In this document: piece after piece, positions 1-26,678 of the stretch
How positions within the stretch are numbered: the stretch's first letter is position 1
Layout: the number at the start of each line of letters is the position of its first letter
Source: Acidimicrobiia bacterium
Lineage (GTDB): Bacteria > Actinomycetota > Acidimicrobiia > Spongiisociales > ZC4RG35
DNA length: 64,000 bases
NCBI GenBank assembly: GCA_965203555.1
Contig: CBDBCY010000004.1
Coordinates: forward strand, 1,408,001 to 1,472,000
Direction: 5' to 3'
Translations under genes and position numbers: made by a program
The notes under the pieces: generated by a model
The model's input: the letters and a program-made list of their open reading frames with translations, nothing else
What the model was told of the DNA's origin: nothing
Database searches by the model: none

Positions 1-448
1 CACCACCGCCCATCTGATACCGGCCGGAAAAGACTCCAAAGACCTTTCCCTGGGAACAGTCTGGTATGAGCGCCCGCCCCCCTGCGTGGGACTTGTAATA
101 GTGCTCCACCCCAGTGAACTGCTCCCCATGATAAATCAACAACGTCACCCGACTGACACCACGAAAAGGCAACCTGTTCACGCCCTGAAAACTGGGAGCA
201 TCAGGCACCATAGTCGTAGTGGCGGCAGGCACCGTAGTCGTAGTGGTAGTGGTCGTGGTGGTAGAAGAAGTAGCAGTGGTGTCGGCAGGGGCCGTGCACT
301 GATACAAATCCTTGATAGCACCCCCGATCCACTTCTGACCCGTCCTCGATCTCTGTCTTTCGCGGGGATTGTCGCTCGGGACTGTACCGGGTGAAAGAGG
401 CCGGTCAACAAGTACCCCGACCTCAATGTGGCGATGCGCCCGCCGCAA
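1..448 (-). CDS. Partial ORF (runs off the left edge) with the C-terminal half of the DWGSG...CTAP module and a Thr-rich linker; 5' end apparently truncated
   Basis: Manual minus-strand translation reads RTGQKWIGGAIKDLYQCTAPADTTATSSTTTTTTTTTTVPAATTTMVPDAPSFQG... with no stop before position 1. The only candidate start upstream is TTG at 448; no signal peptide. Absent from the ORF track. Confidence 0.55.
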   Translation of the reverse strand, partial: MRRAHRHIEVGVLVDRPLSPGTVPSDNPRERQRSRTGQKWIGGAIKDLYQCTAPADTTATSSTTTTTTTTTTVPAATTTMVPDAPSFQGVNRLPFRGVSRVTLLIYHGEQFTGVEHYYKSHAGGRALIPDCSQGKVFGVFSGRYQMGGG

Positions 449-493
449 ACTAGCCTTGGTTGGTCAATTGATTGAACCGAAGGTCCGGTATTC

Positions 494-1942
494 ATGAACA
501 AGACACGACTGGCGAGCCTATGTGTTGCTGCCCTGCTCGTGGCGGCCTCCTGCGGCGGAGCGGAGGACTCCGGTTCTCGGACGCCGACCACTGCTCGTGA
601 GACCGATTGGGGATCGGGTATGACCTATGACGATTGCGGTGAACGGGGCCTGACCGATTACGGCCTTCGGACCGGTCAGAAGTGGATCGGGGACTTCTAC
701 GCCGACCTGTACGAGTGCACGGCGCCCATCACCACAGCCGCCGGTTCCCAGCCGATCAGCGATTCCGCTCCCCCACCCACTACGAAGCCCGGAACGACCT
801 CCCCCCAGCCACCGGCGACCTCCACCTCCACCACAACCCTGCTGCCCCTGCGCGGACTGCGCTATGAACTGGTTTTTGCCGGTGTCCGTGAGACCCTGGA
901 CGACGAAGACGCCATGCCTCTGGAAATCGTGGGGCGACCGGGCGGCCGGTTCAACTACATGATCACCCGCGAGGGAAGGGTGTGGATCGTCGAGGAAGAC
1001 ACTTTCTCCAACCCGCCGGTGCTGGATCTGAGGGACTCTATCGCGATCGGATCCGAAACGGGACTGCTGGGACTGGCCCTCCACCCCACCGATCCGCAGC
1101 GGATGTTCCTCTATTACACCGACTTGGAGTTCGACATCATTCTCGCTGAATACCAACTCGATGACGAGTTGAGGAGAGCGATCCCCTCCAGCGCCAAGAC
1201 CTTGATGAAGATCCCCACCCGCAGTGACTTCCACAAGGGTGGAATGATCTCATTCGGCCCGGACGGCTATCTGTATATCGGGGTCGGGGACGACGGATAC
1301 AGCTTCAACGGCCAAGACCACACTACCTTGCTGGGCTCCATACTCCGCATCGATGTCGACGGAGGAGACCCCTATGGCATCCCCACCGACCAACCCCCTC
1401 TCAGCCCGGAGGCTCCGGAGGTATACCTGTACGGGATCCGCAACCCCTGGCGGTTCTGGATAGACCCGACGACCAATCTGATCTTCATAGGCGATGTCGG
1501 AGCCGATGCCTTTGAAGAGATCGATATAACTTCGCTCGACACGTCCGGCGCCAACTTCGGATGGTCGGTTCTGGAAGGACACCAATGGGGGCCCTTCAAC
1601 GAGGGGACCGCCTGCAGGGAGAACCCGGGAACGTGCGACACCAGTGGCTTCACTCCTCCCGCCCTGGCCCTTCGCCACAGTCCCGAGGTCTGCGCCGTCA
1701 TAAGCGGGATGGTGTACCGGGGGCAGGCCATCCCCGAACTCGACGGACACTACTTTTACTCGGATGCCTGCGGCGGCTTTCTCCGTAGCTTCCGATGGAA
1801 CGGGACACTGGCTGTGGACCTACGAGACTGGACCGAGCAGGTGGAGGCTCGAAAGCGGGTGCTCTCGTTCGGGGTGGACACCCAGGGAGAGATGTACGTG
1901 ATGACCGCCGACGACGTTTTCAGGTTGACGCCCGTCCGCTGA
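494..1942 (+). CDS. PQQ-dependent sugar dehydrogenase (glucose/sorbosone dehydrogenase family) lipoprotein
   Basis: Lipobox VAASC; ETGLLGLALHP, HKGGMISFGPDGYLYIGVGD, GIRNPWRF, GDVG..FEEID and ANFGW motifs of the GSDH beta-propeller. Confidence 0.88.
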   Translation: MNKTRLASLCVAALLVAASCGGAEDSGSRTPTTARETDWGSGMTYDDCGERGLTDYGLRTGQKWIGDFYADLYECTAPITTAAGSQPISDSAPPPTTKPGTTSPQPPATSTSTTTLLPLRGLRYELVFAGVRETLDDEDAMPLEIVGRPGGRFNYMITREGRVWIVEEDTFSNPPVLDLRDSIAIGSETGLLGLALHPTDPQRMFLYYTDLEFDIILAEYQLDDELRRAIPSSAKTLMKIPTRSDFHKGGMISFGPDGYLYIGVGDDGYSFNGQDHTTLLGSILRIDVDGGDPYGIPTDQPPLSPEAPEVYLYGIRNPWRFWIDPTTNLIFIGDVGADAFEEIDITSLDTSGANFGWSVLEGHQWGPFNEGTACRENPGTCDTSGFTPPALALRHSPEVCAVISGMVYRGQAIPELDGHYFYSDACGGFLRSFRWNGTLAVDLRDWTEQVEARKRVLSFGVDTQGEMYVMTADDVFRLTPVR

Positions 1943-1960
1943 CATAAACGCCGAAACCGC

Positions 1961-3970
1961 TTACCGCTGAAAGGTGATGCGCCACGAAGTGTCGACCAGA
2001 TCCGGGGGACAGGTCGCCCTGACGACAGTGGCGGGTGTCATCTCCAGGTATCCGACAGAGACCCAACCCTGGTAGGGATCGGTGTCGCCGCGCGCCATGT
2101 CGATCTGGCACCCATCTCCTTCGAAGACCGCCCGGACCAAGACGTCACCGACCTGAACCAGGAAGCCCGAGGTGTTGATCACCGGATCGAGGTCGGGCGC
2201 CAGGTGAAGGTTGGACTGCCAGCGAGAACTCGTTCTGTTGTAGAGACGGTCCCTGATGGTCAGAGACGACCCCGGCGTATAGGAGAAGGTTCTCTCGTGT
2301 CGAAGCAGTCCGGGGCGATCGACGAATCCCTCCACGACGAAACCGGAGTCGGTCGTCCTGATGGGTTGCAGGTGCGTCTCGGCGGGATCGACTTTGCGAG
2401 GATCAATCGGCCGTGACACGAGGCTCGGGATGTTGTGAGCCCGAGCGCTCAGGACGTAACTGCGCATGTGGTCCTTGTTGTAACCGTACTTACCGCTGTC
2501 GACAAAGATTTCGCGACCCCCTTCTATCAGCACGAAACCAAGGTCATCAGTGTGTTTGTGCCTGATGACCGCTCCCACCACGTTTACGAACATCGCGTTT
2601 ACAAACAGCATGCTGGACTCTTCGGCTCCAGGCAGGGAACGTATGATGGCGTACCCCGACTTCGTAAGATCGCGAACCGCCCAGCAACCCGCCTCTCCAT
2701 CGAGACAGTGCGGCTCGACCGGTCCGGTCAACGGCAACCCGATCCCTGCGCTGTCGCCCACCGGCACCCATCGTCCGTCGGGATAGGTCAACCAGGGGGT
2801 CACACGGGCGCCGTCCTCGATGAGGGTACGCACCCCTGGTAGCCGAGTCCGTTCCGCGATGCGAAGCCGTTGGAGGGCATCCAACACGATGCCGTGGTAG
2901 TTGGGTGAGTTCTCACGATGGACACTCTCGTCCGTGAACCACCGGTCCAGCAGCCTCGCGAAAGCCGTGTCCACATAGGATCGGGCGCTGTTGCAAACGC
3001 TTCGCCAACTGAGGACCGCGCACAGCAGGTTGAGGCCTGCAAGCTGAAACAGGCCGTGATTCCCCAGGGAAAGAAAACGAGGATCCAAAAGCTTTCGGAC
3101 ATGGAGTTCGGCCAACCGGGTCAGGGCGGCGAGATCGTCGTCTTCGATGTCGAGATTGCCGACGAATATATTGTCCAGCAAGAACGCCAGACGGGAGGCC
3201 CGGATGCCGGCGGCCATGTCATACCACTGGAAACGGCTCTCTCGATTGTCCTGGACATGGAACCGTTCCCAGTCGAGGGCAATGGCTGCGATGTGCTCGA
3301 GAGACCCGAGGTCACCGTCCTGGTAGGCGTATAGCCAGTACTCCATCATTACCCATGAATGAACGAGGAACTGCCAGTTGCGATCCTCGAAGGGATCGGC
3401 GGCCCAATCCATCGGGAGGGAGTAGTCCCACTCCGGGAGGTCCGGACGCGGCTGGAGTACACCCGGCGAGGGAGGCCGATGGTGCACCGACAATTCCTCG
3501 ACAACGACGCGGGGGCTGGAATAGTCGTCCGGCCGTAAAACGCCCGCCGGGACCGACCCCGAGGCAGGGGTTACGGCAGGCGCGGCGCAGTGATACAGAT
3601 TGGCATAGAAAGTGCCGTTCCTGATCCACCTCTTGCCCGTCACGGGACCGTAGTTCGTCAGGCCCCGCGACCGGCACTCCGAATACGGCGTACCCGATCC
3701 CCAATCAGGCTCCCGCGGAGTAGTCGCGGTGGGCGCCGTGCAGTGATACAGATTGGCATAGAAAGTGCCGTTCCTGATCCACCTCTTGCCCGTCACGGGA
3801 CCGTAGTTCGTCAGGCCCCGCGACCGGCACTCCGAATACGGCGTACCCGATCCCCAATCATGGTCCGACGCAAAAGCACTCGGAACACCATGGACCAGGG
3901 CACCCATCACCCCCACCAGCAACATAACCACCACCTCTCGGATCCCCGGCAAACCATGCCCACTCCTCAT
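1961..3970 (-). CDS. Secreted heparinase II/III-family polysaccharide lyase-like protein with two N-terminal Cys modules
   Basis: Signal peptide ending AFA; DWAADPFEDRNWQF, ENSPNYH, HKHTDDLGF, DSGKYGY and SARAHN motifs; true start may be the downstream ATG (MLLVGVMG). Confidence 0.8.
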   Translation of the reverse strand: MRSGHGLPGIREVVVMLLVGVMGALVHGVPSAFASDHDWGSGTPYSECRSRGLTNYGPVTGKRWIRNGTFYANLYHCTAPTATTPREPDWGSGTPYSECRSRGLTNYGPVTGKRWIRNGTFYANLYHCAAPAVTPASGSVPAGVLRPDDYSSPRVVVEELSVHHRPPSPGVLQPRPDLPEWDYSLPMDWAADPFEDRNWQFLVHSWVMMEYWLYAYQDGDLGSLEHIAAIALDWERFHVQDNRESRFQWYDMAAGIRASRLAFLLDNIFVGNLDIEDDDLAALTRLAELHVRKLLDPRFLSLGNHGLFQLAGLNLLCAVLSWRSVCNSARSYVDTAFARLLDRWFTDESVHRENSPNYHGIVLDALQRLRIAERTRLPGVRTLIEDGARVTPWLTYPDGRWVPVGDSAGIGLPLTGPVEPHCLDGEAGCWAVRDLTKSGYAIIRSLPGAEESSMLFVNAMFVNVVGAVIRHKHTDDLGFVLIEGGREIFVDSGKYGYNKDHMRSYVLSARAHNIPSLVSRPIDPRKVDPAETHLQPIRTTDSGFVVEGFVDRPGLLRHERTFSYTPGSSLTIRDRLYNRTSSRWQSNLHLAPDLDPVINTSGFLVQVGDVLVRAVFEGDGCQIDMARGDTDPYQGWVSVGYLEMTPATVVRATCPPDLVDTSWRITFQR
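3587..3860. repeat. Exact 121-bp direct repeat (3587-3707 and 3740-3860, period 153 bp = 51 codons)
   Basis: Both copies encode DWGSGTPYSECRSRGLTNYGPVTGKRWIRNGTFYANLYHC on the minus strand. Confidence 0.95.
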
Positions 3971-4012: not shown

Positions 4013-6454
4013 TCATGTGCCGCGTGTGCGGGGAGCGTAAAAGGGTCGGAGAGAGGCGGTGGCGGGAAGGCGCGTCCCGGCAACCTCGATCTCGTACTCC
4101 CCTGCCTCGAGCCAAGCCTTGGCGACACCATCGGAATGCTGCAGATACCCCATCGCCAGGCAGCGATCTTCGACGTAGCTCCACATGCCGGAGGTGGTGC
4201 GGCCCACCAACTCGCCGTTGCGGAAAATCGGCTCGTCGTGATAGAGCAACCGGTCCGGATCTTCCAGGCGAAACTGGACGAGTCGCTTGGGAAGAATCCG
4301 ACCGCGCTGACGCTCCAGCGCCTCCTTCCCGCAGAATCCGCCCGGCTTGTTCCAGTCCACTGCGAAACCCAGACCTGCTTCCAGGGGCGTGTCCTCGTCG
4401 GTGATGTCGTGTCCCCAGTGGCGGTAGCCGGCCTCCAGCCGGAGGGAGTTCATGGCGTGGTACCCGGCGTGGCGCAGACCATGGGCGGCGCCCTCGTCCA
4501 CCACCGCGTCGTAGAGTGAGACCGCTTGGTCGACCGGAACGTACAACTCCCAGCCCAGTTCCCCCACGTAGCTGACCCGCATCGCCAGCACCCGGTGTCC
4601 GGCCACCGTGATCTCCTGCGCCCCGCCGAAGGGGAAGGCATCATTCCCCAGGTCGGCGTCGGTGAGCGCCGACAACAGCGCCCTGGACCGGGGACCCATC
4701 ACCCCCAGTGTCGTCATGGAGGTAGTGATGTCCCGTATCCGAACATCGTGGCCCCGCGCAGCCCTGCGCAAGTGCGCCCAGTCCCGGGTGGGCGCACCGG
4801 AACCCGACACCACCAGGAACTTTTCTTCGGAGAGACGGGTCACCGTCAAATCGGCCTCTATCCCTCCCCGTGAGTTGAGCCACTGGGTGTAGACCACCTT
4901 GCCCACCGGACCGGGGACGCGCCCCGATGAAACCCACCCGAGCAGCCGGGCGGCATCGGGACCCTCCACGTCGAACTTGACGAACGAGGTCTGGTCGAAC
5001 AGTCCCACCGCGTTGCGCACCGCCAGGCACTCCTCGCCCGACGCCGCCCACCAGTTCTGCTTCCCGTAGGAATAGACGTAATGGCGCTCCATCCCCTCGG
5101 TGGCGAACCAATTGGGCCTCTCCCATCCCGACATCTCTCCGAACACCGCCCCGGCGGCGTCCAGCCGGTCGTGGAGGGCCGAGAGCTTGACGTCCCGGGC
5201 GCTCTGATACTGGTAGAACGGCCAGTGCATGGCGTACAGAAGACCGAGGCTCTCCGAAATCCGGTCCTCCAGGAACCCGAGTTCGGTCTGATGGGGCTGC
5301 GCCCGGCGGATGTCCACCGGCCACAGGTCGCTGGGAGGATGACCGTCGATGATCCAGTCGGCCAGCACCCACCCCACGCCTCCCGCCGACTGGATGCCCA
5401 CCGAGTTGAACCCGGCAGCCACAAAGCACCGGTCCACTTCGGGCGACTCGCCCAGGTAGTAGACCCCATCGGGAGTGAAAGCCTCCGGGCCGTTGAAAAA
5501 CAGTTGGATGCCCACCTCTCCCAGGGCGGGGACCCGGTGGATGGAACGCTCGAAGATGGGGCCCACATGATCCCAGTCCTCTGCAAGCACCCCGAAGCTG
5601 AAGTCGCGGGGAATCCCGTCGAGCTTCCACACCTTGCCGCGGGGTTCGAAGAAGCCGGTCATGATCTTGCCGGTCTCCTCCTTGAAGTAGGTGTAGTTGG
5701 TGGGATCCCGCAGGGTGGGCATCCCCGGCGGCACCCCGTCCATGGGTTCGGTTACCAGGTAGAAGTGCTCGCAGGCCTGAAGCGGCACATGCACACCGGC
5801 CGTGGCTGCCAGTTGGCGGGTCCACATGCCCGCCGCCAGCACCACGGTCTCGCACTCCACGTAACCGTGCTCGGTTTCCACCCCGACCACCCGTTCGTTC
5901 TCCACCCGGATCGAAGTCACCGCCACTTCCTCCAGGATCCGCACGCCGCGGTCCTTGGCTCCCTTGGCCAGCGACATGGTGGTGTCGACCGGGCTGGTCT
6001 GGCCGTCCTGGGGAATCCAGGCGGCGCCCACCAGATCGTCGGTGCGGATCAGGGGCCAACGCTCCCGCAACTCGTCGAAGTCCATCTCCCGCATCTCCAC
6101 CCCCACCGTGCGAGCCATGGACAGTCCGCGCATGATCTCCTCCCAACGCTCTGCGTCGGAAGCCACCGAAATGGAGCCCACCGCCCGATATCCGGTGGCC
6201 TGGCCGGTCTCGGACTCCAGGTCGGAGAACAGTTGCGCCGAGTAGGTGGCGAGGCGGGTGAGGCTGTAGGACGATTTGAGCTGGCTCACCAGCCCGGCGG
6301 CGTGCCAGGTGGTTCCGCCGGTCAGCTTCCCCTGCTCCAGCAGCAGAACATCGGTCACTCCCCTTCGAGCCAGGTGGTAGGCGACGCTGCACCCCACGAT
6401 CCCTCCGCCCACCACCACCACCTGGGCCCGGCCCGGCAAAGCCTTGGCGCCCAC
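4013..6454 (-). CDS. FAD-dependent oxidoreductase fused to a GcvT-like domain (dimethylglycine/sarcosine dehydrogenase family)
   Basis: GGGIVG Rossmann motif, GTTWHAAG, GPEAFTPD, GWERPNWF, SYVGELGWELY, LRLEAGY. Confidence 0.92.
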   Translation of the reverse strand: MGAKALPGRAQVVVVGGGIVGCSVAYHLARRGVTDVLLLEQGKLTGGTTWHAAGLVSQLKSSYSLTRLATYSAQLFSDLESETGQATGYRAVGSISVASDAERWEEIMRGLSMARTVGVEMREMDFDELRERWPLIRTDDLVGAAWIPQDGQTSPVDTTMSLAKGAKDRGVRILEEVAVTSIRVENERVVGVETEHGYVECETVVLAAGMWTRQLAATAGVHVPLQACEHFYLVTEPMDGVPPGMPTLRDPTNYTYFKEETGKIMTGFFEPRGKVWKLDGIPRDFSFGVLAEDWDHVGPIFERSIHRVPALGEVGIQLFFNGPEAFTPDGVYYLGESPEVDRCFVAAGFNSVGIQSAGGVGWVLADWIIDGHPPSDLWPVDIRRAQPHQTELGFLEDRISESLGLLYAMHWPFYQYQSARDVKLSALHDRLDAAGAVFGEMSGWERPNWFATEGMERHYVYSYGKQNWWAASGEECLAVRNAVGLFDQTSFVKFDVEGPDAARLLGWVSSGRVPGPVGKVVYTQWLNSRGGIEADLTVTRLSEEKFLVVSGSGAPTRDWAHLRRAARGHDVRIRDITTSMTTLGVMGPRSRALLSALTDADLGNDAFPFGGAQEITVAGHRVLAMRVSYVGELGWELYVPVDQAVSLYDAVVDEGAAHGLRHAGYHAMNSLRLEAGYRHWGHDITDEDTPLEAGLGFAVDWNKPGGFCGKEALERQRGRILPKRLVQFRLEDPDRLLYHDEPIFRNGELVGRTTSGMWSYVEDRCLAMGYLQHSDGVAKAWLEAGEYEIEVAGTRLPATASLRPFYAPRTRGT

Positions 6455-6474
6455 CGCGGGCTCGGTGGCCGGAA

Positions 6475-8025
6475 TCAGCCGCCCCTCACCGACTCGACCG
6501 GAAGACGGATGGGGAACCGCTCCCGAATGAGATCATCCACCGCCGGAGGGACATGGCCGGGAAAGTGGCCGGCCAGGGTCTCCACCACGTAGGCGTGGGC
6601 CCGGTCGGCGACCGACAACGCCCCCGCGTCGGTCCAGTCATCAGGGCTGAGGCGATCTCCGACGTGCGGGTAGACATACTCCCGCTGCATAACCCGCAGG
6701 GTCTGTTCATGCCCCAGAAAATGCCCTTCGCCCGACACCACGTCTTTGATCACCTGGGTGGCGAGGCTGTCCGTGTTAACCTCGATGCCCCGCACCGTGC
6801 GGTTGACTGCTCCCAGCAGGTCGTTGTCCACCACCATCATCTCCAACGAACATGCCATGATCGAAGCCATCATTCCCGCCGACTCGTAGACCAGGTTCGA
6901 CCCGGACAGAGCCGCCAGGGCAACGGTGAGACCCTTCTCGTGCCCGGCCTGTCCGTCGATGAGTTTGGAGTCGGTCATCCCCGCCGGCACCCCGGAGGGA
7001 AGTCCCAGCCAGTTGGCCACCTGAGCGGCGCCGGCGGTCAGCACGGCCTCCTCTCCGCTGCCCCCGCTCATGGCGCCGGTGCGAAGATCGGAAACGAACG
7101 GCCAAAGTCCCATTACGCAGGGATGCCCGGGGGACATCATGTTGATGCAGGTCAAAGCGGCCAGGCACTCGGCCAGGGCCTGCACCAGCGATCCCGCCAG
7201 GGTGGCGGGCGAGGTGGCCCCGGCCTGCCCCGCCGACAGCAAATTGATGGGCATGCCGGTTCTGACCATCGCCACCATGCCCTCCGCCGTCTCCATGGCA
7301 AAACGAAGCGGCGGCACCACGAAGGTGGCGTTCGCCGCTATGAAAGGGCGTTTGCGGAACTCACCGGGTCCGCCCAGCACCATGTCGCACATTTCCACCA
7401 CCTCATAGACGTGGGGAGCATGGAAAAAGGAGGTGCCGATCGGCTTGGTGGTGCCCATGATGGCGGCGTAGGCCGTGTTGATGTCCACTTCACGCGCCCC
7501 GTCGACCTCGCGGGTAACCACCGGACGGACGAAGAAATGGATGTGTTCAAGCGTGTCCACAACCCGGGCGAGGTCGTAGAGATCCTGGGTGGTGGAGTGT
7601 CGGAAGGACCGGGTCAGATGGTCGAACATCAGGACGGCGGCGCCCGCCGTACCGAAGTGGACCTTCTTCTCGGAAAGCTCGATGGAACGGCTCTCGTCGA
7701 TCCCGTGCCACACCCACGACTTGGCGGCCAGTTCGACCGCCCGTCTCACCAGGGACTCGGGGAAGCGAAGCCGCCCCGCATCATCGACCCAACCTCCCGC
7801 ATTGACCACGGCCTCGATGAACTCGGGGATCGGATCACCCATGCCCACTTCTTCCAACAAATGCAGGGAAGCCTGGTAGACATCCTCCATATCGGACTCT
7901 GACAGAGGCCGGTAGGCGCCTCCCTGCTGGCCCGGCCTCACCGGGCGGTCGACCTCCCTGAGTCCCGCGGCGCGGGCGGCTATCCGGGCCGCTCTCCCTC
8001 CTGCCCGGCGACCTCGCCTGGCCAT
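6475..8025 (-). CDS. Trimethylamine methyltransferase (MttB) family protein, non-pyrrolysine type
   Basis: HFGTAGAA, GATSPATLAGSLVQALAECLA, FVSDLRTGAMSGG, GMTDSK..DGQAGHEK, GHFLG; no in-frame TAG. Confidence 0.9.
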   Translation of the reverse strand: MARRGRRAGGRAARIAARAAGLREVDRPVRPGQQGGAYRPLSESDMEDVYQASLHLLEEVGMGDPIPEFIEAVVNAGGWVDDAGRLRFPESLVRRAVELAAKSWVWHGIDESRSIELSEKKVHFGTAGAAVLMFDHLTRSFRHSTTQDLYDLARVVDTLEHIHFFVRPVVTREVDGAREVDINTAYAAIMGTTKPIGTSFFHAPHVYEVVEMCDMVLGGPGEFRKRPFIAANATFVVPPLRFAMETAEGMVAMVRTGMPINLLSAGQAGATSPATLAGSLVQALAECLAALTCINMMSPGHPCVMGLWPFVSDLRTGAMSGGSGEEAVLTAGAAQVANWLGLPSGVPAGMTDSKLIDGQAGHEKGLTVALAALSGSNLVYESAGMMASIMACSLEMMVVDNDLLGAVNRTVRGIEVNTDSLATQVIKDVVSGEGHFLGHEQTLRVMQREYVYPHVGDRLSPDDWTDAGALSVADRAHAYVVETLAGHFPGHVPPAVDDLIRERFPIRLPVESVRGG

Positions 8026-10439
8026 CAGGCCCGCAGCCTTTCCGAACGCGGATCCCAGGCCGGGCCGCGCAGCACCCGCGCCCGGCGGCGTTCGCCCATC
8101 ACCCGGATCTCGAATTCCGAGCCCGGTGATCGGTAGTCGGGATGGACATAGGCGAAGAACAGACTCTTGTCCACCGAATATCCGTAGGCGCCGGAGGTGG
8201 TGAGTCCCATCATCGTCCCGTTTCCGTAGACCGGTTCGTTGCCCCGGCAGTCGGCGTCGACCGCGTCCATTGCACCGTAGACCAACACCCAGGCAAGTTC
8301 GGACCCACGCCTGGCCATAGTGGCCGCCTTGCCCTGGAACTCCTTTTGGTAGTTGACAAAACGTTCGATGTCAGCCTCCACGGGCGTGATCTCGGTGGTC
8401 AACTCGAAACCGTGAGCCTTGTAGGCCTTTTCGATACGCATGACGTTCATGGCGTAGGCGCCGAAGTCCACCAGTCCCAGGCCCTCCCCCGCTTCCTGAA
8501 TCGCCGCGTACAATCCGGCCATCTCTTCGATCGGATGGTGCAACTCCCAGCCCAGTTCACCGACGTAACTCACTCGAAGAGCCAGACAGTGCACACCGGC
8601 CACCTCGATCTCCTGTCCCGTGAGCCAGGGGAAGCGGGCATTGGTGAGATCGGCGTCGGTGAGTTTCTCCAACAGTTCCCTCGACCGGGGACCGGTCACC
8701 GCCAATATCCCCCTCCGGTTGGTGACATCGGTGACCGTCACGTCCTCTCCCGGGAGGACATGATGCCGCAGCCAATCCTGATCGTGCTGCTCGGCCATGA
8801 TCGAGGAATTGAGGTAGAAACGGTCGTCGTCCAGCCTGGTGATGGTCACCTCACCCTCGATCCCACCGAGGGTGGTGAGCATGTGGGCCAGCCGGATGCC
8901 CCCCGGTCGGGTGGGCAGGCGGTTGGCCGCCAGCCGGTCCAACAGCGCCGCCGCATCGGACCCGGTCACCTCCAGCTTGGTGAAAGCGGTCAGGTCGGCC
9001 ACCCCCACCCGGTTGCGGACACCCGCCACTTCCTGTCCCACCGGCCCGAACGCCGAAGACCTCCGGAAGGAGTACTCCTCGGGGACGCCGTCGGGAGAGA
9101 AGTATCGAGCCCGCTCCCATCCGTAGATCTCCTGGAACTGGGCGCCCTTTTGGGCCAGGGCGTCATACAGCGGGGTCTGCTTGATCGGACGTCCCGCCTC
9201 CCGGTATTCGCCGGGCATCCGCACCTGGTACATTTCGTGATACTCGTCGATCGCCTTGGCGTGGGTGAAGTCTCCGGGGGCGTGGGGCCCGAATCGGCGG
9301 GGATCCATTTCGGCCACGTTGATCTCGGTCTGGCCATGGACCATCCACTGGGCCAGGTACTTGCCGGCGCCGGGTCCCTGGCAGATGCCGATGGAGGACC
9401 CCACACACATCCAGTAGTTCTGCAAACCGGGCGCCGGACCGATCATGAAGCCGGAATCCGGGGTGTGCGTGATGGGACCGCACACCACTCGCGTTATGCC
9501 TGCCTCCTCCAGGACAGGAGTCCGGCGGGCGGCCAGGTCCAGCCAGGGAAGGAGCTTCTCCACATCGGGAGGAAGCAGATGGAAGGTCAGATCCCAGTCG
9601 ATGCCCTCCATTCCATAGGAAAGGGAGCCCTCCGTCTCGTATGGCCCGATCAGCAAACCGTCGTGTTCCTGCCGGGTGTAGCAGGAGGACCGGGGATCGC
9701 GCAACACCGGGATTTCGAAGTCGAGATCGGCCACGGCCGGTATGGCCTCGGTGACGACGTAGTGATGGATCACCGAGACGATCGGCGTGTCCAGGCCCAC
9801 CATCGCCGCCAACTGCGGACCGAAGTGGCCGGCCGCATTCACCACGTGCTCGGAGACTATGCGTCCCTTTTCGGTGATGGTCTCCCAGCGTCCGTCCGGA
9901 AGTCGGTTCATGTCGATCACCCGATTGCGCCGCACGATCTCGGCGCCCAGTTGTCGGGCGCCGGCCGCCATGGAGTTGGTGGCCGAGGACGGGTCGGTCC
10001 AACCGTCGCCGGGGGTGTGGAGACCCACCACCACCCCTTCGGTGTCCACCAGGGGGTGCAGTTTGCGGATCTCCGAGGGACCCACCAAGTGCGACTCCAC
10101 CCCCACCAACTCGAGTACCCCGTGGACGTATTTGAACCAGTCGGCCTCGTCGGGGTTGGTGGCCAGCCGGACAGCGCCGCAGCCGTGCCACCCCGTGTGA
10201 AGACCTGTCTCCTCCTCCAGGCGGCTGTAAAGCTCGGCGCCGTAGGCGTGGACCTTGGCCATGTTGAGGCTGCCGATGAAATGGGGCACCAGACCTGCTG
10301 CGTGCCAGGTGGATCCTGACGACAATTCGTCCTTTTCCACCAGAACCGTGTCGGTCCAGCCCTCATGGGCCAGGTGGTAGAGCAGACCTACCCCCATTGC
10401 GCCGCCACCCACGATTACGCAACGCGCTTCTTCTCTCAT
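8025..10439 (-). CDS. Dimethylglycine dehydrogenase-like FAD oxidoreductase with GcvT domain
   Basis: GGGAMG, GSTWHAAG, GPITHTPD, GWERARYF, SYVGELGWELH, RIEKAY; start placed at ATG 10439 (MREEARCV). Confidence 0.92.
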   Translation of the reverse strand: MREEARCVIVGGGAMGVGLLYHLAHEGWTDTVLVEKDELSSGSTWHAAGLVPHFIGSLNMAKVHAYGAELYSRLEEETGLHTGWHGCGAVRLATNPDEADWFKYVHGVLELVGVESHLVGPSEIRKLHPLVDTEGVVVGLHTPGDGWTDPSSATNSMAAGARQLGAEIVRRNRVIDMNRLPDGRWETITEKGRIVSEHVVNAAGHFGPQLAAMVGLDTPIVSVIHHYVVTEAIPAVADLDFEIPVLRDPRSSCYTRQEHDGLLIGPYETEGSLSYGMEGIDWDLTFHLLPPDVEKLLPWLDLAARRTPVLEEAGITRVVCGPITHTPDSGFMIGPAPGLQNYWMCVGSSIGICQGPGAGKYLAQWMVHGQTEINVAEMDPRRFGPHAPGDFTHAKAIDEYHEMYQVRMPGEYREAGRPIKQTPLYDALAQKGAQFQEIYGWERARYFSPDGVPEEYSFRRSSAFGPVGQEVAGVRNRVGVADLTAFTKLEVTGSDAAALLDRLAANRLPTRPGGIRLAHMLTTLGGIEGEVTITRLDDDRFYLNSSIMAEQHDQDWLRHHVLPGEDVTVTDVTNRRGILAVTGPRSRELLEKLTDADLTNARFPWLTGQEIEVAGVHCLALRVSYVGELGWELHHPIEEMAGLYAAIQEAGEGLGLVDFGAYAMNVMRIEKAYKAHGFELTTEITPVEADIERFVNYQKEFQGKAATMARRGSELAWVLVYGAMDAVDADCRGNEPVYGNGTMMGLTTSGAYGYSVDKSLFFAYVHPDYRSPGSEFEIRVMGERRRARVLRGPAWDPRSERLRA

Positions 10440-10600
10440 ACCGCGCTCTCCATGATCCCGGGCGGGCCTACCAAACGGGGAAGTATATTTGCCATGTTCT
10501 CGCACACCCCACTTCCAACTCGGAAAAGTCCGGTTCCAGACGCTGGAATATTCCGGCTACTGATATGATGAGGATACCCACTTTACTGGAGAGTTGGATC

Positions 10601-11377
10601 ATGACAGAGAACCTTGCCGCTTGGGCGGGAGGCAGCGGCGACTATGTGAGCGAACCTGCTTTCGAGACTGTCGACGGACTCCGCCGCCACCGCAAACGGC
10701 AGACCGCCCTCTCCTATCGATTGTTCGGCGCATTCGGATGGGGATCGCTGGGAGACGGGCACATCACCGCCCGGGACCCCGAGCGCACCGACTGTTTCTG
10801 GCTCCTCAAATACGGTGTCCCCTTCCGTCAGGCCACGGTGAACGACCTGGTGCTGGTGGGACCGGGCGGCCAATTGGTGGAGGGCGAAGGGCCGATCAAC
10901 ATGACCGCCTATTACATCCACGCTCCCATTCACGACGCCCGGCCCGAGTCGGTGTCGGTCGCGCACACTCACACACCCTATGCCACGCCCTGGGTGTCCA
11001 ATGTCCGCCCTTTCCGGATGATCTGCCAGGAGGCCACCGCCTTTTTCAGGTCCCAGGCGATCTTCGAGGGGGAGGAGGTGCAGGTGATGGACGCCGACAC
11101 CGGCAAGCACATTGCCGCGGCGCTTGATGAGGCCAGGCTGGTGTTCCTGCGCAATCACGGACCGGTGACGGTGGGTCAGTCGGTGGAGGAGACCATCGGC
11201 TGGTTTCTCCTGGCCGAAAGAGTGGCCGAGGTCCACATCAAGGCGCCGGACGCCCTGCCGATATCCGACCAGGCCGCCTTCATCGCCTCAACCGAGATCG
11301 GCCATCCCAGCAACGCAGCCGCCGTCTACGAGTACGCCGTCATGTCCCATGTACCCGACCCCTCGGTGGTGGATTGA
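10601..11377 (+). CDS. Class II aldolase/adducin family protein
   Basis: GHITARDPE, IHAPIHDARP, AHTHTPY, LRNHG metal-binding motifs; start at ATG 10601. Confidence 0.88.
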   Translation: MTENLAAWAGGSGDYVSEPAFETVDGLRRHRKRQTALSYRLFGAFGWGSLGDGHITARDPERTDCFWLLKYGVPFRQATVNDLVLVGPGGQLVEGEGPINMTAYYIHAPIHDARPESVSVAHTHTPYATPWVSNVRPFRMICQEATAFFRSQAIFEGEEVQVMDADTGKHIAAALDEARLVFLRNHGPVTVGQSVEETIGWFLLAERVAEVHIKAPDALPISDQAAFIASTEIGHPSNAAAVYEYAVMSHVPDPSVVD

Positions 11378-20320: not shown

Positions 20321-23300
20321 ATGCGGAGTGTGTTCGAAACCGTCCGTCCCCGAAGGGACGTGCTCTCCGGGGAGTTGCGGGACGAGATCTTCGCCGCCCA
20401 GCTGGCGGAGGTGGTGGCCGGACGGGGTGAGCCCGTCTACCGTGATTCGACCGTCTTCTTCGCCAACACCTACCCCACCAACGGACTCAAGGCCCTCCTG
20501 CACCAGGCCCTGGGACGGATCGCCGGGCGGTCGACGGCGCCCATCATCCGCTTGGAGACGGCCTTCGGCGGCGGCAAGACCCACTCGCTGATCGCCCTCT
20601 ATCACCTGGCCGCCCACCGGGCCCGTCCCATCGGCGTCGAGGACTACGTGGACCCGGCCCTCCTTCTCGACCGGCCGGTGCGGGTGGCGGCCGCAGTGGG
20701 AAACGACCTCGACCCGACCCAGGGTGTCACCCACCCCGACGGCGTCACCACCTACACGCTGTGGGGAGAACTGGCCCATCGGCTGGGCGCCTTCGGACAT
20801 GTGAAGAAAGCCGACCGACGGAAGACCGCGCCCGGAGTGGGTTCGCTGGCGAAGGTGTTCGAGGGTGCTCCGGTGGTGGTGATGCTGGACGAGATGGCCC
20901 GCTACCTGACGGTGGCGGCGGGAGAACCGGTGGGACACGGCACCCTGGCCGACCAGACGGTGGCCTTTCTGATGGCGCTCCTCGAGTACGCGGCCGGGGT
21001 GGATCACGTTGTGGTGGTGTACACCCTCGCCGGTTCAGCCGACGCCTTCCCGGGCCGCACCGAGGGCGTGCTGGAGAAGATCGAGTCGCTGCGGGACGCC
21101 GAAGCGATCTCGTCGCGGCACGAGCACGTTATCACCCCCACCGGCGAGAACGAGATCTCCGCCATCGTGCGGCATCGACTATTCGACTGGGTGGACCCGA
21201 CCGCCGCGCAGGAGACGGCCCTCACCTACCACCGGGCGATCGCCGATCAGATGGAACGCGACGCCGACCTTCCCGCTCACGCCGCCACCGCCGGGTACAC
21301 CCGGGACATCCGCGACAGCTACCCCTTCCATCCCGAACTCCTCACCGGACTCAACGAGAAGGTCTCCACCATCCCCAACTTCCAGAAAACCCGCGGTGCG
21401 CTGCGGCTTCTCTCCCGGGTGGTGCGACAGCTATGGACGGACCGCCCGGCGGACACCTTCCTGATCCATCCCCATCACGTCGACCTCTCGACCGACGAGA
21501 TCGCCAACGACCTGACCAGCCGGCTGAACCGGGCGGTGTTCCGGCAGGTGATCGAGGCCGACATCGCCAACCCGATGGCCGGCGCCAAGGCGCACGCCGC
21601 CCTGGTGGACGACCATCTGATCGCCTCCGGCAAGCCCCCCTTCGCCACCCGGGCGGCCACCACCGTGCTACTCCATTCCCTGGTGCAGGGCGTGGCCTCG
21701 GGGCTCAGCCCCACCCAGGCCAAGCTGGCCGCCTACACTCCCGGCGACGACCTGGGTTTGATGGAGGGCCAGATCCGAAAGCTGCTGGACCGGGCCTTCT
21801 ATCTCCACTTCGACGGTAACCGCTTCCGCTTTTCCACCGAGCCGTCCCTGGCGGCCGTGGTCAACCAGGAGACGCAATTGATCGGGCGGGCCACCGCCAA
21901 GACCGAGTTGGATCGACGGATTCGCACCATCTGGAAGAAGGGCGTCTTCAGCCCGGTGTTCTTCCCGGCCGAGCCGTCGGAGATCGAGGACACCCCCGGC
22001 CCGCCCCGCCTGGTGGTGATGCATTACGACGCGGTGGCGGCTTCTGCAACAGATGCTCGACCCCCCCCCCCATCGAACGCATGTTCGACCGCGCCGGGAC
22101 GGCGGAGGGGTTCCGCAGCTTTCGCAACCACGTCGTGTTCCTATGTGCGGACGGGGCCAATCTCGAACATGCGGTAGGAGAGGCCCGTCGCTACCTGGCG
22201 ATCAGCCGGATCGTCGGCGACCCGCAACGCCTCTCCCAGTTCACTCCCGATAACCGAAAGCGCCTGCAGGCGCTGGGAAACCAGGCCGAACTCACCCTGC
22301 GGGTGGCCGTCACCCGGCTCTACCGGCTGCTCTACTACCCCGACGCGGCGGCGCCCCGCCGGCAGGCGCAGCTCACCCGGGCCCTGCTCCCGGCCCAGCA
22401 GCAGGGAGACGTCAAACGCGATCAGAGCCGGACGGTGCTGGCCACCCTGCGGGAACTGGGCAAGGTGCGCACCGCCGACGATCCGGGATTCCCACCGGCA
22501 TTCATCCGTACCAAGGCGTGGCCGGCCCAGGCCGAGCGGACGACGCCTCGCAAGATCCAGCGGGAGTTCGCCTCCCGGATAGGGCTGCCGATCGTGCTGG
22601 ACGTCAACCTCCTGAAGGAGGCCATCAAAACCGGGATCCGGACCGGCCAGTGGCTCTACTACGACCCCCGCCAGGAGTGCGCCTACTCAGCGGACTCACC
22701 CACCACGCCGCTGGTGGAGATCACCGACGACGTGGAGTTGATCCTCCCCTCGGCCGCCGAGGGAGTCCCCATCTGCGGGCAGTGTGCGGTTTGCGAGGAA
22801 CCCCGGGGGCGGTGCCAGTGCTCCCGGTCACCCAAGCCATGCCCGGTGTGCAATCACCCCCAAGACCGGTGCGCCTGCGGCAAGGGCGGGCCGACCCCTG
22901 CGGTGGGAGCGATCCGGGCGGAGGGCTCTGCGGCCCAGGCCTTCCAGAAGGTGGTGGATCTCGCCCACGAACGAGAGGTCACCGCCGTGGCACAGGTCAC
23001 GATTCTCGCCGAAGGAAGCGGACGGGAGTTCGTCCGTGACCTGGGAGCGGTCACCCTGGCGGTGCCGCAATTGCCCAAGTCGGAGGTGCGGGTGGAGATG
23101 GACGCCGCCTTCAACCTGCCGGACAAAAGCAACCTGCGGGTCGAGTACCGGGGTCCGTGGGCACGGTTCCGTGAGATCGTCAACACCGCCCGGCGGGTGG
23201 GAAAGGAGGCGACCGACAGCTCCGGTCGCATCCGGCTGCAGGTCACCTTTCCCGAGCCGGTCGAACCCGGCGGGCGGGAGATCGGAGGCATGCGGGACAC

Positions 23301-23364
23301 CTTCGTGAGGCTCGACCCGGGCCGGATCTCCCTGATCGCCACTCCCATGCAGGAGCCGGGATGA
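20321..23364 (+). pseudogene. DUF499-family ATPase of a restriction-like defence system, split by a C11 homopolymer frameshift
   Basis: FFANTYPTNGL, Walker A TAFGGGKTHSL, TLWGELA, Walker B VMLDE, SYPFHPEL, NFQKTRGALRLL; frame break at 22061-22071 continues into ORF 22081-23364 (FRNHVVFL). Confidence 0.88.
22061..22071 (+). repeat. C11 homopolymer tract inside the DUF499 gene
   Basis: cga CCCCCCCCCCC atc gaa cgc atg; C9 or C12 would restore the frame. Confidence 0.95.
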
Positions 23365-23786
23365 ACCGCCGCCTCCGCTCCTTCGAGCTTCGGGTGTTCC
23401 CGGTGGAGGACACGGGTTTCGGTGTGGAACTGTCCCAGGGCATGAACGGCCAAGTCCCCCGGCGGGTGGTGCGCTCCTGGGGCCCGGCCCTCCAGTCGAT
23501 CGGCCATCACTTGCTGGAGGCGCTGCGGGCGTCGGGATACCGGCCCGCCGACCTGAAACGGACCCGCCGCAAGCCCTTCGCCGTGCCGGAGGTGGTGGGA
23601 GTCCGCCTAGGACTGGCGCTTTTGGCGCTCAAGCCTCTTCGCAAGGTCCGGCGCCTGGAGGAGGTGGCCTCGGCGGTCCGGGACCTGGGTGACGACGAAG
23701 CCTTCTACTGGTACGCCAAGTGCACCGACCCCCACACGGGGCGGCGGGCGCAGCGGGCCTTCCGCGACCTGGTGAGCGACCGATGA
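23361..23786 (+). CDS. Small accessory protein of the DUF499 system (positional equivalent of DUF3780)
   Basis: Overlaps both neighbours; GVRLGL..LALKPLRK and DEAFYWYAKC motifs. Confidence 0.75.
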   Translation: MNRRLRSFELRVFPVEDTGFGVELSQGMNGQVPRRVVRSWGPALQSIGHHLLEALRASGYRPADLKRTRRKPFAVPEVVGVRLGLALLALKPLRKVRRLEEVASAVRDLGDDEAFYWYAKCTDPHTGRRAQRAFRDLVSDR

Positions 23787-26665
23787 CCCGGCGCCGTTCT
23801 CTGATCGACGACTGGCTGCCCATCGCCGAACTCAGCGTCGAAAGCCGTCGGGAGAGAGGAGCTTCTTCGGCGCTGCCACCCCTGTACTTCCTCCATGTCT
23901 GGTGGGCGAGGCGGCCGCTCACCGCCTCGCGGGCGTCGGTGCTGGGGTCGCTGCTGCCCGCCTGGTCGGAGGACTGGCCTGAACCCCTGAGGGCACGCTT
24001 CTTCAACCAGGATGAGTATCGGAAATGGTTCACGCATCTGCTGGGCATCCGCGGCAACCCGGTGGAAGCTCAACGCAAACTGGTCAAGGCCCGTCAAAAG
24101 GGCAAGCGGATACCCAACCCATACGAAGGACCACGGGCGTTCACCCTGGCCGCCGAGGCCGAAGATATACATACGCTCCGAAAACTCCTGAAGTGTCGAT
24201 GGGGAACCGAGACGCCCACGGTACTCGACCCCACCGCCGGAGGCGGATCGATCCCCTTCGAGACCATCCGCTTCGGGTTGCCCGCCCTGGCCAACGAACT
24301 CAACTCGGTGGCGTCGTTCGTACTTGAAAGCAGCCTCACCCTCCCTGCCCGCTTCGGTACGGACTTGGCCAATGACATCGTCCATTGGGGCAGACTTTGG
24401 ACCGAGCGAGTCAGAAAACGTCTCTCCGGCTTCTTCCCACAGCCCCCCGAGCAGTCGGTGAGAACCTATCTCTACGCCCGCACCGTGACTTGCCCCGAGA
24501 CCGGCAAACCGGTGCCGCTCAGTCCCAACTGGTGGCTGCGGAGAGGCAAGAACCCCGTCGCAGCCCGGCTGATCGCAGAACCCGGCATGTCGGAGTGCCG
24601 ATTTGAGATCGTCGAAGGCAAACAGATCGACTTTGACCCGAGCGTGGGGACCGTCCGCCGCGGCACCGGGCGCTCTCCATGGACCGGCGCCACTATTCCC
24701 GGGGATCACATCAAGGCCGAGGCGCAGGTGGGCCGCATGGGTTCGCAGATGTACGCCATCGCGGTCAAGACCGGACGTGGACTTGAATTCCGAGCCCCAG
24801 ACCGAACCGACTTGGAGGCCGTCCGTGCCGCCGAGAAGGAACTTGACAGGGTTATTGACAGGTGGCTTCTCGAAGACACGGTTCCTACCGAGAGGTATCC
24901 CGATTTTGCCTCTGATATGCGTCCTCACCATTACGGAATGTCTAAGTGGCGGGGGTTCTTCTCCTCACGACAACTGCTGGTGTTGGGCACCGCGGTTGAG
25001 GAATTACGTATTCTCAACCATGAACTTTCCAAACGTCTCGATCCCACAAAAGCCAAAGCCGTCGGAACCTATTTGACCGCAGCATTCAACAAGATGACCT
25101 CATACAACTCTATGGGATCTTCCTGGCATGCAGGCCGTGCAGTCATTGCTCCGAGATTTGCTCGCCACGACTTCTCGTTCAAGTGGTCCTTTTCTGAAAT
25201 GAACTTCGCTGTCTCTCGGTTGGGCCTTGAGTGGGCCGTCGATCAGATCACCGATGCCTACCGGGGCATCGCCAGCCTGCTGGAGCCCTCTCGCCAGGTT
25301 CTGTTCCCCGATCGCCCCGAGAGGGCCGCCGACCTAGTGAAGGTGTACAACCGGGACGCTGCCGACCTGCCGCTGGAAAGCAACAGTGTCCAAGCGGTGG
25401 TGATGGACCCTCCCTACTACGACAACGTCCAGTACGCCGAGCTCTCCGACTTCTTCTACGTGTGGCTGAAGCGCACCGCCGGGCATCTGTACCCGCAGTT
25501 CTTCTCCACCGAGTTGACCGAGAAAGCAACGGAGGCGGTGATGAACCCCGCCCGGTTCGTCGAGTTCGACCGCAAGAACGCCAAGGCCCTGGCCAAGGCC
25601 GACTACGAAGCCAAGATGACCCGCATCTTCGCCGAGGCGCACCGGGTGCTCACCGACGACGGCGTGCTGACCGTGATGTTCAACCACAAGAAGACCGAAG
25701 CCTGGGACACCCTCGGCCAGTCGCTGATCGAGGCGGGCTTCCGGATCGAGTCGTCCTGGCCGGTCCACACCGAGTCGGAGCACTCCCTCCACCAGGCCCG
25801 CAAGGCCGCGGCCGCCTCCACCATCCTCCTCACCTGCCACAAACGGGCACCCAACCCCGAGCCGGCCTGGTGGGACGACCTGAAGGCACAGGTGCGCCGG
25901 ACCGCCCGCCACAGCGCCGAGCGATTCCGGAAAGAGGGCGTGGACGGGGTGGACCTCTACATCTCCACCTTCGGGCCCGCCCTGTCGGTGATCTCCCGCC
26001 ACTGGCCGGTGTTCACCTCCGAAGTGGACCTCGCCACCGGCGAGCCCCGTCGGCTCCGCCCCGAGGAGGCGCTCGACCTGGCCCGCCGGGAGGTGGCAGA
26101 TCTGCGACTGCGGGGGATGCTGCTGGGGCGCCGGGTGGAGTTCGACCCGGTCACCGACTGGTACCTGCTGGCCTGGGACTCGTTCCGAGCCGTGGAGTTC
26201 CCCTACGACGACGCCCGCAAGCTAGCCCTGGCCCTGGGGGTGGACCTTGCCCGTGACCTGCGCCGCCTGCGCCTGGTCACCAAGAAGCAGTCCACGGTGG
26301 TGCTCCAGGATCCCGTCCAGCGGCGGAGGACCGGCCTGGCCGACACCGAAGCCACCGAATTCGAGCGGCTGATCGACGCCGCCCACGCCCTGATGGTCAC
26401 CTACCGCGAGGACGGGACAGCCGGCGCCGTGCGGTTCCTCGAGCGCACCCGCCTAGGCACCGACACCCGGTTCCACTCCCTGATGCAGGCGCTGGTCAAC
26501 GCCGTCCCCCGCACCCGCATCAAGGGCCGCTTCGCCCGCCCCGAAGCCGAGGACCTGGACGGCCTGGGCGTCGGCCTGGCCCACGTCTTCGGCGATCTGC
26601 GCTTCCCCGAGGACCCGCCCTCGGCGCTGCGGCCCACCCAGGGCAACCTCAGATTCGGATCGTAG
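23783..26665 (+). CDS. DUF1156-domain adenine-specific DNA methyltransferase
   Basis: LHVWWARRPL, LDPTAGGGSIPFE (SAM binding), YLYARTVTCP, DPPYYDNVQYAELSDFFYVWLKR, MFNHK. Confidence 0.92.
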   Translation: MTRRRSLIDDWLPIAELSVESRRERGASSALPPLYFLHVWWARRPLTASRASVLGSLLPAWSEDWPEPLRARFFNQDEYRKWFTHLLGIRGNPVEAQRKLVKARQKGKRIPNPYEGPRAFTLAAEAEDIHTLRKLLKCRWGTETPTVLDPTAGGGSIPFETIRFGLPALANELNSVASFVLESSLTLPARFGTDLANDIVHWGRLWTERVRKRLSGFFPQPPEQSVRTYLYARTVTCPETGKPVPLSPNWWLRRGKNPVAARLIAEPGMSECRFEIVEGKQIDFDPSVGTVRRGTGRSPWTGATIPGDHIKAEAQVGRMGSQMYAIAVKTGRGLEFRAPDRTDLEAVRAAEKELDRVIDRWLLEDTVPTERYPDFASDMRPHHYGMSKWRGFFSSRQLLVLGTAVEELRILNHELSKRLDPTKAKAVGTYLTAAFNKMTSYNSMGSSWHAGRAVIAPRFARHDFSFKWSFSEMNFAVSRLGLEWAVDQITDAYRGIASLLEPSRQVLFPDRPERAADLVKVYNRDAADLPLESNSVQAVVMDPPYYDNVQYAELSDFFYVWLKRTAGHLYPQFFSTELTEKATEAVMNPARFVEFDRKNAKALAKADYEAKMTRIFAEAHRVLTDDGVLTVMFNHKKTEAWDTLGQSLIEAGFRIESSWPVHTESEHSLHQARKAAAASTILLTCHKRAPNPEPAWWDDLKAQVRRTARHSAERFRKEGVDGVDLYISTFGPALSVISRHWPVFTSEVDLATGEPRRLRPEEALDLARREVADLRLRGMLLGRRVEFDPVTDWYLLAWDSFRAVEFPYDDARKLALALGVDLARDLRRLRLVTKKQSTVVLQDPVQRRRTGLADTEATEFERLIDAAHALMVTYREDGTAGAVRFLERTRLGTDTRFHSLMQALVNAVPRTRIKGRFARPEAEDLDGLGVGLAHVFGDLRFPEDPPSALRPTQGNLRFGS

Positions 26666-26678
26666 GGAATACCACGGG

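Follow-up and report, generated by a model that had tools for sequence, protein, structure and literature searches.

The 64,000-nucleotide stretch of Acidimicrobiia DNA analysed here (contig CBDBCY010000004.1; hereafter the window) carries at its left end two convergent genes whose exported products share a short N-terminal module with two invariant cysteines. One encodes a pyrroloquinoline quinone (PQQ)-sugar-dehydrogenase-like lipoprotein of the GSDH family with one module, and the other a heparinase II/III-like protein with two modules in tandem. The best explanation of the data is that this module is a non-catalytic domain of some 45 residues that folds on its own and is restricted to one lineage. 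The family that it forms has no name and no detectable relatives, and its predicted fold matched nothing, although a remote fold relative is possible. A binding role is plausible, and the replacement of the module by SLH domains or lipoboxes in orthologous proteins supports it indirectly; we tentatively read the module as a device of cell-surface retention.

Conservation and predicted fold of the module

The anatomy of the family was described from 47 member proteins with 84 module matches, 74 of them full-length and 73 distinct. Residues W4, G5, G7, C13, T19, G26, W29, L37, Y38, C40 and P43 are invariant in the 73 distinct full modules, and aromatic residues are conserved at W4, Y/F10, Y21, W29, F33, Y34 and Y38. 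The module is under purifying selection, with ratios of nonsynonymous to synonymous substitution (dN/dS) of 0.08-0.42 in 10/10 pairs of orthologous GSDH modules. AlphaFold2, run on an 18-row alignment, gave a model with mean pLDDT 91 and pTM 0.65, in which a strand (residues 3-5) and a helix (10-15) are predicted to precede a beta-hairpin (24-30/33-38). Because the two cysteines are invariant in exported proteins, and given the topology of the model, Cys13 and Cys40 probably form a disulfide.

The position of the module is fixed. In all 47 members the first module starts no more than 52 residues from the N-terminus, either 2-3 residues past an AxA-type cleavage site or about 15 residues past the lipobox Cys; in fragments that lack the N-terminus it starts at residue 1. 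Each protein has 1-4 copies with Thr/Pro-rich linkers between them, and in the lipoproteins the module lies about 15 residues from the lipid anchor with a long linker on its far side. The initial annotation of the window, made from its letters and translations, had described a discrete two-cysteine module that it did not recognise as a named Pfam family; the alignment, the searches reported below and the AlphaFold2 model bear out a conserved module that databases do not name. Its further observation that Thr/Pro-rich linkers join the module to unrelated exported enzymes extends across the family members.

Searches for a known family

No Pfam-A family covers the module region in scans of the whole host proteins, and scans of 18 single modules at E<=10 returned only DEFB136, in 4/18 (best E 0.044); these beta-defensin matches were rejected as chance. 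The absence of a named Pfam family, as first annotated, was thereby confirmed on whole proteins and single modules alike. The precomputed Pfam annotation, which uses newer models, is empty for P0008 and P0012, two proteins that hold little besides modules, and NCBIfam gave no family for the isolated module or for P0002, P0007 and P0020. A profile search of PDB sequences with the module produced one match of 11 residues (E 0.13). Foldseek found nothing in the PDB at E<=0.001 for the module model (best E 6.9, TM (query) <=0.37), the method being weak on 45-residue domains, and the best ESM Atlas score (0.82) pointed to no family and was uninformative. The domain and fold check thus gave no described family in Pfam, NCBIfam, PDB sequences or Foldseek against the PDB.

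Families with comparable roles were considered individually. SLH matched 0/18 modules at E<=10, and the Pfam models CBM_2, CBM_5_12, CBM_10 and LysM did not reach their gathering scores on the module; as to the carbohydrate-binding modules (CBMs) of CAZy, the profile searches of PDB sequences and of representative proteins gave no characterised relative. Membership of the dockerins was not indicated by any Pfam match, by internal duplication in the module alignment or by the predicted fold, which has one helix plus strands. Literature searches on Acidimicrobiia with heparinase and on the DWGSG motif returned nothing relevant. Two further candidates concern multi-module proteins. Urocanase_N barely passes its cut-off there (best P0012, 23.6 bits vs 23.2) with 0 stretches passing alone, and was rejected because its score adds up weak, incomplete matches along the repeats; on single modules it gave no match. 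PF27503.1 appears on P0007 in the precomputed annotation and is not the module, since other multi-module proteins lack it.

Module copies in the window

The window was scanned with a regular-expression motif and then with a profile built on the three full copies and run over the six-frame translation of the 64 kb, which revealed no further copies. It holds three intact copies of about 45 residues in two genes and a half copy in a pseudogene fragment (Table 1), which align as DWGSG..Y..C...GLT.YG..TG.[KR]WI..G.FYA.LY.C.AP. The initial annotation had counted four copies in three neighbouring open reading frames (ORFs). Motif scan and profile search recovered all four stretches where it had placed them, but only three are intact, in two genes. 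It had also described every copy as followed by a Thr/Pro-rich linker and a different domain, which does not apply to copy 1 of the heparinase-like protein: there a 6-residue Thr/Pro linker leads into copy 2. These two copies differ at 8/141 nucleotides, share an identical core of about 121 nucleotides and recur with a period of 153 nucleotides, and such near-identity speaks for tandem duplication or gene conversion in the recent past.

The half copy lies in a relic of a gene of another type, that of the multi-module metzincin-like exoproteins. In BLASTP the translation of the relic matches residues 214-300 of P0002 with 64% identity. P0002 is a protein of 1025 residues with four N-terminal modules, a Thr-rich linker, repeated domains of about 115 residues, an fn3-like region and, towards the C-terminus, an HExxHxxGxxH motif. 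By tblastn, P0002 residues 214-300 fall on window positions 346-92 in frame -3 and residues 302-332 on positions 90-1 in frame -1, so that the reading frame breaks near position 91; the relic stops short of the peptidase-motif region of P0002-type proteins. At its 5' end, DNA likeness to other modules begins abruptly at about position 346, in the middle of the module, with nothing related upstream, and the relic ORF has no signal peptide. What had been taken for a third module-bearing gene is, with its truncation in mid-module, its missing signal peptide and its frame change, a pseudogene fragment. An assembly error may account for the frameshift but not for the 5' truncation. An inversion between module copies was considered as the cause of the truncation and dropped because the GSDH module is intact. 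In the related loci L001, L002 and L004 the region upstream of the GSDH gene contains a molybdopterin dehydrogenase, a PfkB kinase and an Indigoidine_A (PsuG-like) gene, and L003 retains the dehydrogenase and the kinase with no Indigoidine_A match. Since the genes upstream of GSDH in these relatives are different, the relic sits at a synteny break.

Two side observations concern genes of the relic's type. In locus L005, an IS110-family transposase (2592-3866(+)) is found about 2 kb upstream of an intact multi-module metzincin-like gene. The repeated domain of about 115 residues is itself unnamed, with no Pfam match; it occurs in 3 to about 8 copies per protein in P0047, P0001-P0003 and P0007, has two conserved Cys and follows the pattern ..F[TS].[VL]E[HY]Y..C...W.V.TG.G..EC......VRV....WS.W. 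The start of one such copy lies within the relic at positions 92-199.

Distribution and enzyme partners

A word-indexed search with the three-copy profile, which covers the longer proteins, found 42 proteins with the module. An exhaustive hmmsearch with the 18-module profile against 1.84 billion representative proteins gave 15 matches at E<=0.001, and 14 clusters reached E<=1e-10. Scores drop from 58 to 35 bits, with no tail of distant relatives, and the entry at 35 bits (P0048) was discarded as a member: its six matches to profile positions 15-28 are low-complexity FGN[KR]TGQR repeats. Scanning one genome per GTDB species revealed 5 module loci among 27 pattern matches, a lower bound given that only two peptide patterns were used; all 5 lie in metagenome-assembled genomes (MAGs) titled Acidimicrobiia or 'bacterium'. 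Altogether, 55 of the 257 proteins collected carry the module. As judged from these sequence collections, the module is confined to a narrow clade of uncultured Acidimicrobiia. Both the protein profile searches and the 5 MAG loci place copies beyond this locus, and the module is not only a local duplication.

The 47 members were sorted by partner with simple marker motifs of our own. GSDH-like proteins with a lipobox-like signal account for 21 (fragments included), with one module each, and heparinase II/III-like proteins for 15, with 1-3 modules. The remaining 11 ('large/other') comprise metzincin-like proteins of about 1000 residues with 3-4 modules, the short fn3 plus metzincin-like P0042, and P0020. 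The motif HEAGHA[LF]GF..H can be read in P0001, P0002 and P0007; Pfam matches to Reprolysin_3 and Peptidase_M10 stay under their cut-offs. For P0020, the Atlas relates the last 330 residues to Peptidase_C11 (score 0.95), which is a lead only, Pfam having given nothing. The first annotation had noted that both identifiable partners act on carbohydrates; across the family this fails, as metzincin-like and (by the Atlas lead) clostripain-like partners are also present.

In a tree of 74 modules over 44 columns, with few columns and many open forks, the partner labels need 4 changes vs a shuffled mean of 33.8 (none of 200 shuffles needed so few). Modules of GSDH-like proteins group together (SH-aLRT 89), and tandem copies of one protein are often sisters.

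What takes the place of the module in relatives

A search with the catalytic region of the heparinase-like protein (residues 150-669) listed 120 proteins, of which 14 were known module-bearers and 106 were new, none of these with a module. Among them, P0051 is 65% identical and has a signal peptide followed by an N-terminal SLH region (Pfam E 1.5e-17, best stretch 30-72), after which junction and catalytic domain are as in the window protein. In P0054 and P0091 a lipobox with a short linker stands at the module position. Separately, P0117 and P0121 have an unnamed N-terminal domain of about 270 residues in place of module, SLH or lipobox.

A tree of the heparinase catalytic domain was built on 36 hand-picked rows: all 13 full-length module-bearers, P0051 and 22 others taken down the ranking. 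P0051 groups with the 13 module-bearers (SH-aLRT 100). The sister clade has 14 rows, 11 with a lipobox by rule, two (P0059, P0062) with a lipobox by eye and one (P0056) without Cys. The sequences of module-bearing heparinase-like and metzincin-like proteins stop at exactly the point where those of their anchored orthologues do, and no other anchor was found in them.

The heparinase-like orthologues are 65-77% identical, and the window shares the convergent GSDH/heparinase gene pair in synteny with L002, L003 and L004. In L001 the position of the heparinase-like gene, next after the module-bearing GSDH gene, is held by a gene (7579-11055(+)) for a 1159-aa protein with 4 SWM_repeats, an arylsulfotransferase propeller, Big_5 and SLH (E 1.5e-7). 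GSDH-like orthologues, 72-81% identical, occur with and without the module, all of them with lipoboxes.

Possible functions of the module

We propose that the module is a cell-surface retention or co-localisation module that binds a repetitive envelope polymer, a reading which we hold as possible rather than established and at somewhat under an even chance. In this scheme, 1-4 tandem copies would bind a repetitive polymer of the cell envelope by avidity, the ligand would most likely be a wall glycan, and the flexible Thr/Pro-rich linker would let the catalytic domain project outward. The reading as a surface retention or binding module is drawn from the SLH domains or lipobox that close heparinase-like orthologues carry at the module position. 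A copy number of 1, 2 or 3 among heparinase-like orthologues and the frequent sister relationship of tandem copies are what avidity for a repetitive ligand would lead one to expect. More generally, we infer binding, and with it the nature of any ligand, from the fixed N-terminal position, the membrane-proximal site in the lipoproteins, the variable tandem number, the unrelated partners, the lack of another anchor on module-bearing heparinase-like and metzincin-like proteins and the alternation with SLH or a lipid anchor in close orthologues. Partners as unrelated in catalysis as a GSDH propeller, a heparinase-like domain, fn3 plus metzincin-like and C11-like domains argue against the targeting of one substrate.

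Several observations weigh against this proposal. Module and lipobox coexist in the GSDH-like proteins, where retention alone would be redundant. Moreover, each of two contigs has a pair of GSDH paralogues of which only one carries the module while both have a lipobox-like signal, which suggests that the module adds something beyond anchoring. SLH and module exoproteins coexist in at least one relative (L001), and the module is therefore not simply the clade's substitute for SLH. Finally, the replacement of the module by SLH or a lipobox would fit a CBM-like role just as well.

That role is the strongest of the alternatives, although we regard it as unlikely: the module would be a substrate- or matrix-targeting CBM of a new family that concentrates enzymes on an external glycan, for instance a sulfated or acidic polysaccharide from the habitat or a host matrix. 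The module is indeed aromatic-rich, and the two intact host proteins of the window fall in families whose names refer to enzymes acting on sugars. An architecture of module, linker and catalytic domain with variable tandem copies is typical of CBM-bearing actinobacterial glycanases, and the order and variable copy number seen here resemble it. The presence of the module on GSDH-like proteins that already have a lipobox-like signal also fits a role other than retention. However, the metzincin-like and clostripain-like partners share no glycan substrate, and in the lipoproteins the module lies near the lipid anchor with the linker beyond it, which speaks for the envelope rather than a distant substrate. 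Neither a Pfam CBM likeness nor a PDB relative was found.

A role without binding, in which the module would cap the protein for folding or stability, serve as a spacer or be recognised in processing, glycosylation or export, appears improbable. It would agree with the strict location of the module at the mature N-terminus, directly past the cleavage site, and with the Thr/Pro-rich linkers that always come after it; linkers of this kind are O-glycosylated in actinobacteria. Three to four nearly identical tandem copies are nevertheless hard to explain for a tag or a cap, and close GSDH paralogues do without the module. We give a similarly low probability to the module being the docking half of a clade-specific enzyme-display system, that is, a protein-protein or protein-polymer tag of which fold and receptor would both be new. 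If this were true, a dehydrogenase, a polysaccharide-lyase-like enzyme and proteases would be gathered in one surface layer of Acidimicrobiia.

The least probable reading, and a very doubtful one, is the dockerin-like tag of the initial annotation, by which enzymes would dock on a scaffold protein or on each other in a surface complex. The same tag does occur on 3-5 exoenzyme types per clade, and the proteins of about 1000 residues with 3-8 repeats of the 115-residue domain could in principle offer receptor modules, but the proposal gained no positive support: the module has no Pfam dockerin match, no duplicated Ca-binding segment in its alignment and a beta-rich predicted fold, its copy number of 1-4 is highest on the putative scaffold itself, and no candidate partner emerged. 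In addition, the only large repeat protein visible in the window is the truncated, frameshifted relic while the enzyme modules are intact, and the word-indexed search listed only these two enzymes from the window's 3.14-Mb contig.

Acidimicrobiia are abundant and largely uncultured, and little is known of how they retain enzymes at their surface. The module is suited to registration as a new domain family and is a possible small affinity or display tag. If binding were shown, it would mark exoproteins that work together at the surface of Acidimicrobiia. The wider impact is modest because of the narrow range given by the search of representatives and because accessory modules on exoenzymes are a familiar kind of device.

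Gene organisation at the left end and other features of the window

The features that bear on the module are collected in Table 1. The GSDH-like protein meets Pfam PF07995 with E 3e-33 (116 bits vs a cut-off of 25), and in the PDB it is related to soluble glucose/aldose dehydrogenases and the HHIP beta-propeller; its NCBIfam TIGR03606 score (50) is far under the cut-off of 434.55. The sequence LLVAAS-C in its signal is one that we take to be lipobox-like by the general lipobox rule, and GSDH orthologues retain LL[IL]AAACGG at this site. The heparinase-like protein meets Pfam PF07940 with E 8.1e-16 (58.7 bits vs a cut-off of 24); at E<=0.01 it has no sequence relative in the PDB.

Table 1. Module-related features at the left end of the window
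Feature	Position	Strand	Basis
Relic of a multi-module metzincin-like exoprotein gene (product ~1000 aa); 5'-truncated inside its last module, runs off the window edge	1-346	-	BLASTP, tblastn
C-terminal half of module (RTGQKWIGGAIKDLYQCTAP), first half absent	287-346	-	Motif scan; profile match 281-373(-), E 6.4e-6
Gene for 482-aa PQQ-sugar-dehydrogenase-like (GSDH family) lipoprotein, one module	494-1942	+	ORF
Signal sequence with lipobox-like LLVAAS-C (Cys20)	494-553	+	Read off translation
Module copy, residues 36-80 of GSDH-like protein	599-733	+	hmmsearch, E 2e-29
Pro/Thr/Ser-rich linker between module and beta-propeller	734-868	+	Read off translation
GSDH beta-propeller domain, residues 156-473	959-1912	+	Pfam PF07995
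Gene for 669-aa heparinase II/III-like exported protein, two tandem modules	1961-3970	-	ORF
Hepar_II_III_C domain, residues 433-617	2120-2674	-	Pfam PF07940
Module copy 2, heparinase-like protein	3572-3712	-	hmmsearch, E 7.2e-34
Module copy 1, heparinase-like protein	3725-3865	-	hmmsearch, E 7.9e-34
Putative cleavable-type signal peptide, residues 1-34, ending ..SAFA|SD	3869-3970	-	Inferred from translation

Other genes of the window are mentioned for completeness. At 4013-10505(-), a gene of the MttB methyltransferase family lies between two dimethylglycine-oxidase-like genes (DAO + FAO_M + GCV_T), which suggests the catabolism of methylated amines (glycine betaine, dimethylglycine or sarcosine); the first dimethylglycine-oxidase-like gene is syntenic with L002. 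PADLOC identified Hma-type anti-phage defence genes at 20321-30312(+). The set includes an HmaC-like AAA+ ATPase (E 3.9e-94) that covers only positions 8-571 of the 941 in the profile and is possibly truncated, together with an HmaB-like DUF1156 methylase and an HmaA/BrxH/DrmD-like SNF2 helicase, and is followed by an AAA_16 ATPase gene at 30482-31651. A protein with Schlafen/AlbA_2 and HATPase_c_4 domains, encoded at 44737-46377(+), gave weak PADLOC matches to pAgo-associated models (E 1.4e-24). Complex-I genes are located at 46-54 kb.

Comparison with known systems

Like the type I dockerin (PF00404), the module is a small tag common to several secreted enzymes of one organism. It differs from it in lacking the duplicated Ca-binding loop-helix, in its beta-rich predicted fold, in its N-terminal and multi-copy occurrence and in having no identified cohesin-like partner. 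With the small CBMs (CBM2, CBM5/12, CBM10 and LysM/CBM50) it shares size, aromatic residues, a likely disulfide, tandem copies, the linker architecture and the variety of enzymes served, whereas the absence of any Pfam, PDB-sequence or Foldseek match, the protease partners and the restriction to one narrow clade set it apart.

SLH domains (PF00395) are helical and have no disulfide. The module has no sequence likeness to them, is predicted to adopt a strand-helix-hairpin fold with two invariant Cys, and comes in 1-4 copies where SLH typically comes in 3. Both are, on the other hand, short (about 45-55 residues) and non-catalytic, stand in tandem at the N-terminus of exported enzymes and act non-covalently (on the module side, as predicted), and the SLH of P0051 occupies exactly the module position of the heparinase-like protein in the window. 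By this analogy, the module would be a functional analogue of SLH and not its relative.

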